A stretch of 55,035 bases of DNA, the filler included, from Bipalium vagum (Eukaryota), in NCBI GenBank assembly GCA_037834085.1. It is 3 parts of 3 records of this genome, joined end to end, with 100 filler letters (N's around TTAATTAATTAA, not from the genome) between each part and the next. Parts side by side here need not be neighbours in the genome. Positions count along the whole stretch, not along the records: positions 37,379 to 55,035 come from JBBMKC010056705.1; 2 more parts are not named here. One strand, written 5' to 3'. Under the pieces are notes generated by a model. The model worked only from the letters and a program-made list of their open reading frames with translations, was not told the origin of the DNA and did no database searches. A program made the translations under genes and the position numbers. Shown here in pieces: positions 51,098 to 51,376 of this stretch; within the stretch, counting starts at the first letter, position 1, and the number at the start of each line of letters is the position of its first letter.

Positions 51098-51376
51098 AGG
51101 GCTCAAGATAAGTATTGAATTAAGAGACCCTGCAACTTAAATGACAGCCACTCTCTGTAGTGTTGGAGCGCCATAGATTCATGCAGGGTAGCCGTGACCT
51201 TGTGAATGTTGTCACCGTCAAAAACGTATTGAAGGGTCTTATTTGGAGTGAAGACAATGACGGTGAGGGTCACAGATTAGTTGGGTACCATGAAAACGCA
51301 TTTAATGCGCTGTAGTTTTAACCCTTTACAGGATTTCCGAATCTTCGTTCTCCAACTGACTTGGTCGAATAACCCT
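51098..51376. other. Compact multi-stem structured sequence (candidate structured RNA)
   Basis: At least nine nested helices, listed in findings; family unassigned. Confidence 0.55.

Follow-up and report, generated by a model that had tools for sequence, protein, structure and literature searches.

A predicted RNA fold in a decayed non-coding repeat behind a broken retrotransposon gag fragment of Bipalium vagum

Few LTR retrotransposons, among them yeast Ty1 and Ty3 and mouse MusD and IAP, have had their cis-acting RNA structures mapped. In MusD, an RNA export element of about 400 nt, the MTE, lies beside the 3' LTR (PMC4588558, PMC3362945). In Ty1, the first 326 nt form a structure in the 5' domain for translation initiation, packaging and the start of reverse transcription (TIPIRT), and this RNA selects the genome for packaging (PMC5454406).

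Here, we describe a locus in a stretch of 55,035 nucleotides (filler included) from Bipalium vagum (GCA_037834085.1), referred to as the window. A stretch of ~290 bases in it, 51087-51373, belongs to a dispersed non-coding repeat, of which it is one decayed copy, and follows directly on a broken retrotransposon gag. With the MTE and related export elements it would share a length of several hundred nt, a multi-stem build, a non-coding nature and an LTR retroelement as its source (PMC4588558), and with the TIPIRT domain a folded RNA of ~300 nt at a retrotransposon end. In its position the segment is non-coding and downstream of the gag fragment; no intact copy was seen. As to tertiary contacts, the one pseudoknot proposed here is not kept among the differences listed. 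Unlike the locus described here, Ty1 is copia-type, with a domain built on a pseudoknot with kissing hairpins. The stretch in B. vagum is non-coding, has three serial domains and shows no primer site, whereas the Ty1 domain overlaps the gag coding sequence. Likeness to the MTE or the Ty1 leader is thus an analogy at best, with no sequence match and no demonstrated family membership. The tRNA-bearing LTRs of Helenus and TRIMp3 are LTR-element-derived, short, folded and dispersed like the repeat found here, but they contain a tRNA part; none was detected here, and the flanks are common on both sides, unlike those of solo LTRs (PMC10886601).

The window is animal DNA, rich in AT, and contains genes split by introns as well as transposon debris. 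Genes for a DEAH-box RNA helicase (667-4428, -) and a KIDINS220 SAM-domain protein (14953-16092, -) lie in intron-separated pieces and thereby mark an animal genome. A decayed gypsy element occupies 10250-12370 (+) and includes zinc knuckles, protease and RT; where its gag and pol overlap, 10752-10794 folds as a long hairpin (z -2.44) or may be drawn as an H-type pseudoknot and, judged by these models, is a likely frameshift stimulator. High-copy DNA-transposon debris of very high contig depth flanks the stretch of interest (46670-48535, 50392-50690 and 51600-53900). An rve integrase fragment lies at 47098-47508 (-) and a Tc5-type HTH at 46670-46948, and this debris may resemble Maverick/Polinton. 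An inverted repeat at 48747-49446, with two blocks of 78 and 94 nt that are ~90% complementary and 224 nt apart, is probably a foldback or MITE-type element. Runs of N are found at 14102-14292, 18768-18867 and 37279-37378, two of which hold a 12-nt filler palindrome, an assembly artefact. The features of the locus are as follows.

50694..51083, +, retrotransposon gag fragment, capsid part, multi-copy, with 20 homologues
51084..51086, +, junction of gag fragment and structured repeat, a putative deletion or fusion point, with loose ends of 2 contigs on each side
51087..51373, +, dispersed non-coding repeat carrying the fold, with 7 listed contigs 82-88% identical and no coding signature in 6 frames
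51127..51189, +, D1, predicted outer stem of 8 bp enclosing a poorly defined interior (z -1.0 on +, -2.0 on -)
51194..51273, +, D2, predicted interrupted long stem (6-8 bp plus 9 bp) with a variable bulge and a 5-bp hairpin on top, the best-supported domain
51279..51357, +, D3, predicted closing stem and tight four-way junction (51290-51348) with three hairpins, from the fold of D3 alone
51162..51356, +, competing long-range helix between 51162-51168 and 51350-51356, which excludes the D3 closing stem, a predicted two-state fold
51360..51382, +, 8-nt direct duplication (51360-67 and 51375-82), seen in the sequence at the right break point

Copies of the repeat were sought in one public run, possibly the window's own source. 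The contigs of this run were placed on 51040-51420 as 57 pieces, of which the eight listed are the self contig and seven others of 482-1674 nt. At least seven other copies, 82-88% identical over 167-245 nt, span 51087-51373. Because one contig covers 51022-51447 with zero differences, the junctions at 51083 and 51087 are not assembly errors. The summed contig depth, which is no copy number, is 3 to 21 times the single-contig depth, peaks at 51183-51221 and drops to about 65-72 at 51084-51086. Among the loose contig ends listed (6 of 28), two contigs depart from the window sequence at 51083, two join at 51087 with a common upstream flank (both of the two reaching 51087; agreement 0.88) and three depart at 51373 with a common downstream flank (all three reaching 51373; agreement 0.91). 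Since the copies that reach its ends have common flanks, 51087-51373 is an internal part of a longer repeat. In the window copy both ends are cut off, and it would be inactive. Together with the gag fragment it makes up a block of ~700 nt at ~40% GC, the gag fragment being the left and the folded stretch the right part. The 8-nt duplication is internal at the right end, where repeat homology stops at 51373, and looks like a scar left by presumed repair rather than a target-site duplication.

The segment 51087-51373 is non-coding, with 6-10 stops per + frame and no synonymous excess in any of the six frames (P>=0.17; listed differences). Viral, metagenome and prokaryotic collections, in which animal genomes are few, contained no homologue from outside the host genome. 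DNA patterns of the element found nothing in viral contigs, and the bare pattern of the 9-bp stem gave 72 matches, none alike beyond the pattern itself; seven pattern matches in bacterial genomes were taken as chance, the D3 model having 0 matches in 49 loci. Within the window, a covariance model built on the single D3 copy returned no second one (best other E 0.42). Searches of open-access text listed no description of the element, for which an earlier annotation as an LTR family, for instance in Repbase or Dfam, may exist.

The gag fragment had 20 homologues at E<=0.001 (HMMER, representative proteins), the best with 52% identity and E 1.8e-25, and its best matches were 37-53% identical over the capsid region. 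A word search against longer proteins gave no match. The homologues are ~400 aa long, have two CCHC knuckles and bear uninformative names; the Retrotrans_gag domain appeared in 4 of 14 aligned homologues at E<=0.01, the member shown scoring below the curated cut-off. Full-length proteins of this Ty3/gypsy-type gag family (P0001-P0066, from metagenome and Logan assemblies) are ~400 aa with two knuckles, whereas the window contains a capsid fragment that ends at 51083 and lacks the zinc knuckles and the C-terminus. Many contigs cover the fragment, and contigs bearing gag relatives cluster at 4.4-4.6 kb, some at 9.2-9.3 kb, about double. The gag alignment found 42 loci in metagenome contigs, with similarity confined to the zinc knuckles, and none in viral contigs, and the RT fragment of the window also had no match in viral contigs.

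Two motifs recur in this family. All 26 full-length proteins (P0001-P0064) carry TGD close to the N-terminus, and 27 of 29 carry xKN close to the C-terminus, 25 of them exactly 15 residues before the stop; the residue before KN is always one with an A-ending codon. Read back from the amino acids, TGD suggests a primer site inside gag, and xKN suggests an A_AAA_AAC -1 frameshift site near the gag end. A_AAA_AAC is a known shifty heptamer (PMC5009743). Microsporidian gypsy elements are described as single-ORF (PMC4202319), whereas the gag family here looks two-ORF. A DP..SVG stretch at 51126-67 was considered as the end of a family gag and rejected: its spacing is not colinear, and xKN is absent.

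The initial annotation had singled out 51098-51376 as a densely paired, possibly novel structured RNA made of three consecutive domains. All 25 motifs that it named were found at their positions, and D1-D3 form the minimum-energy fold of the + strand when pairs are limited to 95 nt. Compared with shuffled sequences, the unrestricted fold of the 279 nt has no advantage on + (z -0.22, equalled by 78 of 200 shuffles) and a moderate one on - (z -2.38, equalled by 1 of 200). Limiting pairs to 95 nt gives z -1.52 on + and -3.86 on -, against a background of 64 GC-matched strand-tiles of the window with mean 0.12 and minimum -2.54, although the element bounds were hand-picked and those of the tiles were not. 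The individual domains follow the same order, - versus + being -2.0 versus -1.0 for D1, -3.0 versus -1.8 for D2 and -2.6 versus -2.2 for D3, with stems at probability >0.9 on the - strand.

D1 has an outer 8-bp stem, and in its poorly defined interior ATGAC/GCCAT contains an A.C mismatch and pairs with probability 0.01 on +. The 9-bp stem of D2 has a probability of 0.97 in every context. The four-way junction proposed for D3 is both the MFE and the centroid structure of D3 alone on +, and cannot form on -. Tight four-way junctions arose in 7 of 3000 D3 shuffles; since 3 other of 2328 window strand-tiles also contain one, the junction alone is not decisive. The helix 51162-68/51350-56 has a duplex energy of -8.9 versus -6.0 kcal/mol for the D3 closing stem and a predicted probability of 0.41-0.68 versus 0.31-0.58. 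It is part of the global MFE on +, and in full context the two states compete about evenly. Neither arm carries a difference among the 40 of 100 difference rows listed. Two similar copies of a short motif, GTTGG, 3-4 nt, CCAT, are separated by 118 nt (51162-51174 and 51280-51292), and either copy can pair with 51352-56.

To ask whether the fold is kept among copies, we used the 40 of 100 difference rows listed, which are unphased and from one run, and made several tests; the null for stem breaking moved each row to a random site of the same base. On +, 7 rows break a stem versus 12.0 expected (P 0.03), and among the 21 common rows listed 1 versus 4.35 (P 0.02). The corresponding values on - are 11 versus 15.5 (P 0.07) and 7 versus 8.6 (P 0.31), again among the rows listed. 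At pair 51240/51251 in D2 the window copy has U-A, and the counts give C-G for at least 5 of about 11 other contigs, so that a double change is certain; 51129/51187 in D1 is a possible second. As covariation these two do not exceed chance (0.52 expected, P 0.09, among the rows listed). With this and the folding z of about 0 on the strand favoured by the differences, two of the refuting outcomes named in the initial annotation are borderline. Variable sites make up 14 of 124 stem positions versus 20 of 118 outside, a depletion that is not significant (P 0.14; rows listed).

No substitution falls in the D2 9-bp stem among the rows listed, with coverage there among the highest; a G.U-compatible change at 51197 occurs in 14 contigs, and 51251 and 51253 each have a breaking change in 3 contigs. 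D1 has breaking changes at 51132, 51134 and 51142. In D3, the changes at 51279 and 51328 are G.U-compatible, and the fourth junction arm is broken by a change at 51333 that is present in 4 of about 5 other contigs. One contig lacks 14 nt at the tip of D2, a deletion that, as aligned, also takes the greater part of the small hairpin's 5' strand; another lacks 11 nt and with them most of the D3 hairpin 51297-309. These losses fit modular arms but also hairpin deletion at the DNA level. The pseudoknot suggested between 51232 and 51321 fared badly: all three listed differences disrupt its pairing, one being found in 6 of about 7 other contigs, and two of its bases are also required by stem 51236-40. 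The helix said to close the whole element (51098/51371) appears incidental because its 3' arm extends beyond 51373, where the repeat departs from the window sequence. Selection on + probably acts on D2 and on most of D3, whereas the D1 interior, the pseudoknot and the closing helix lack support; overall, support for the fold is modest. The strand, left undecided by the initial annotation, is most likely +, on evidence that is split, as energies alone favour -.

The element is of a known kind, and its fold is without a match. As the first reading had held, it belongs to no known family searched: Rfam gave no match at gathering score and two chance matches at E 2.9 and 5.6, and it is no tRNA (ARAGORN 0 genes, no Rfam tRNA match). 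Pattern scans found no hammerhead, hairpin-ribozyme, Sm or telomere-template motif. The view that it is not a MITE also stands, as none of the 25 longest inverted repeats (of 433) lies here and the flanks are common to the copies. Because these flanks are shared on both sides, a new free-standing ncRNA is not favoured, and the suggestion of a retroelement UTR or packaging signal fits a dispersed non-coding repeat behind a gag fragment. Several further classes were tried and rejected. SECIS had no pattern on + and one loose match on - only. Telomerase RNA had no template pattern, the repeat is multi-copy, and loop letter 51323 differs in 6 contigs. A tRNA-derived SINE or a Helenus LTR was set aside for lack of a tRNA-like core (ARAGORN, Rfam). 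A solo or complete LTR would have different flanks and these are common to the copies, but the segment may be part of a longer LTR or UTR. TGG-starting sites, candidate primer-site positions, lie at 51362 (+) and at 51173 and 51290 (-). A gag-pol -1 frameshift signal was rejected because the frames are non-coding, DP..SVG is not colinear and lacks xKN, and no slippery heptamer precedes D1; the only one, at 51322, lies inside a D3 loop.

We consider it about an even bet (roughly 0.5) that the element is the non-coding end region, i.e., part of the 3' UTR or LTR, of a Ty3/gypsy-type element, with a modelled fold that would act, by analogy, as a cis signal for RNA export or Gag packaging. The gag fragment lies directly upstream of the folded repeat on the same strand, and a single internal deletion may have joined the capsid part of gag to the downstream non-coding region of the same element. 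The pol of the gag relatives is presumably ~3 kb. Relatives of ~4.5 kb would then, after 1.25 kb of gag and the pol, leave ~300 nt of non-coding sequence, which is the size of the segment and thus points to the 3' UTR/LTR end. Because folded RNAs of similar size at retroelement ends export or select the genome, the fold may be read as a scaffold for export or packaging. The working strand would be +; the long stem of D2 and the D3 junction are predicted to form a protein-binding scaffold, and 51350-56 might swap between the D3 stem and 51162-68 as a translation/packaging switch, as in other retroelement RNAs. Among the listed contigs of the one run, none was seen to link the repeat to gag or pol in an intact element, and neither an LTR end nor a primer site or target-site duplication could be established at this copy. 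The gag piece is closer to its nearest copy than the structured piece is to its copies, so the two may stem from different elements.

Such a difference in origin is the core of one competing explanation, in which the structured RNA of another repeat (non-LTR, SINE-like or a new ribozyme) fell beside gag in a transposon graveyard. The sharp junction at 51083/51087, the other neighbours in other contigs and the rve integrase and Tc5-type fragments close by would suit it, and ribozymes reportedly occur in flatworm non-LTR elements (PMC8501958). We nevertheless regard it as rather improbable, because the pieces abut within 3 nt at similar GC, for which one deletion is the simpler explanation, and no Rfam match, tRNA or motif of the ribozyme, Sm and telomere-template patterns scanned was found. 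Incidental pairing in GC-richer non-coding transposon DNA, i.e., a real repeat with an unselected fold, deserves more weight, although it too seems unlikely to us. The z of about 0 on +, the three other tight four-way junctions in 2328 window tiles, the weak covariation statistics, the possibility of hairpin deletions at the DNA level and the choice of helices on this single copy all agree with it. It accounts poorly for a local z of -3.86 exceeding all 64 background tiles, for breaking changes below expectation (P 0.02-0.03) with one certain double change, and for a D2 9-bp stem without a listed substitution at near-highest coverage.

An alternative function for the same RNA would be in translation, as an IRES-like leader or a gag-pol recoding signal for Pol or Gag, between or before the ORFs. 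Its place directly behind the gag fragment, the three domains of about 230 nt, the ATGs at 51141 and 51290 and the two-state fold are in keeping with such a role. Yet the gag family already contains a likely -1 site of its own (xKN, 25 of 29) with which the window is not colinear, no slippery heptamer precedes D1, no frame is open or synonymous-biased, the pseudoknot is not kept in other copies and no IRES family of Rfam matched, and we judge this role quite improbable. That - is the working strand, through an antisense transcript or a reversed element, is hardly credible in spite of the better energies of all three domains and the stems at probability >0.9: common differences break 7 pairs versus 8.6 expected (P 0.31), against 1 versus 4.35 on +, and 7 of 9 common stem differences, minus 3 rescued, leave 6-7 mismatches; the four-way junction cannot form, and gag is on +. 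A larger claim, namely an undescribed Ty3/gypsy lineage whose modelled two-state RNA would be a new class, be it a translation/packaging switch, a compact ribosome-entry element or a ribozyme, is doubtful.

As it stands, the end-region reading concerns a dead transposon fragment with a plausible fold of modest support. Should the RNA be self-cleaving or ribosome-recruiting, it would be a new functional RNA class. A multi-domain fold with a dozen or more naturally diverged copies in one invertebrate genome would provide a ready covariation set for RNA export and packaging in Ty3/gypsy elements.
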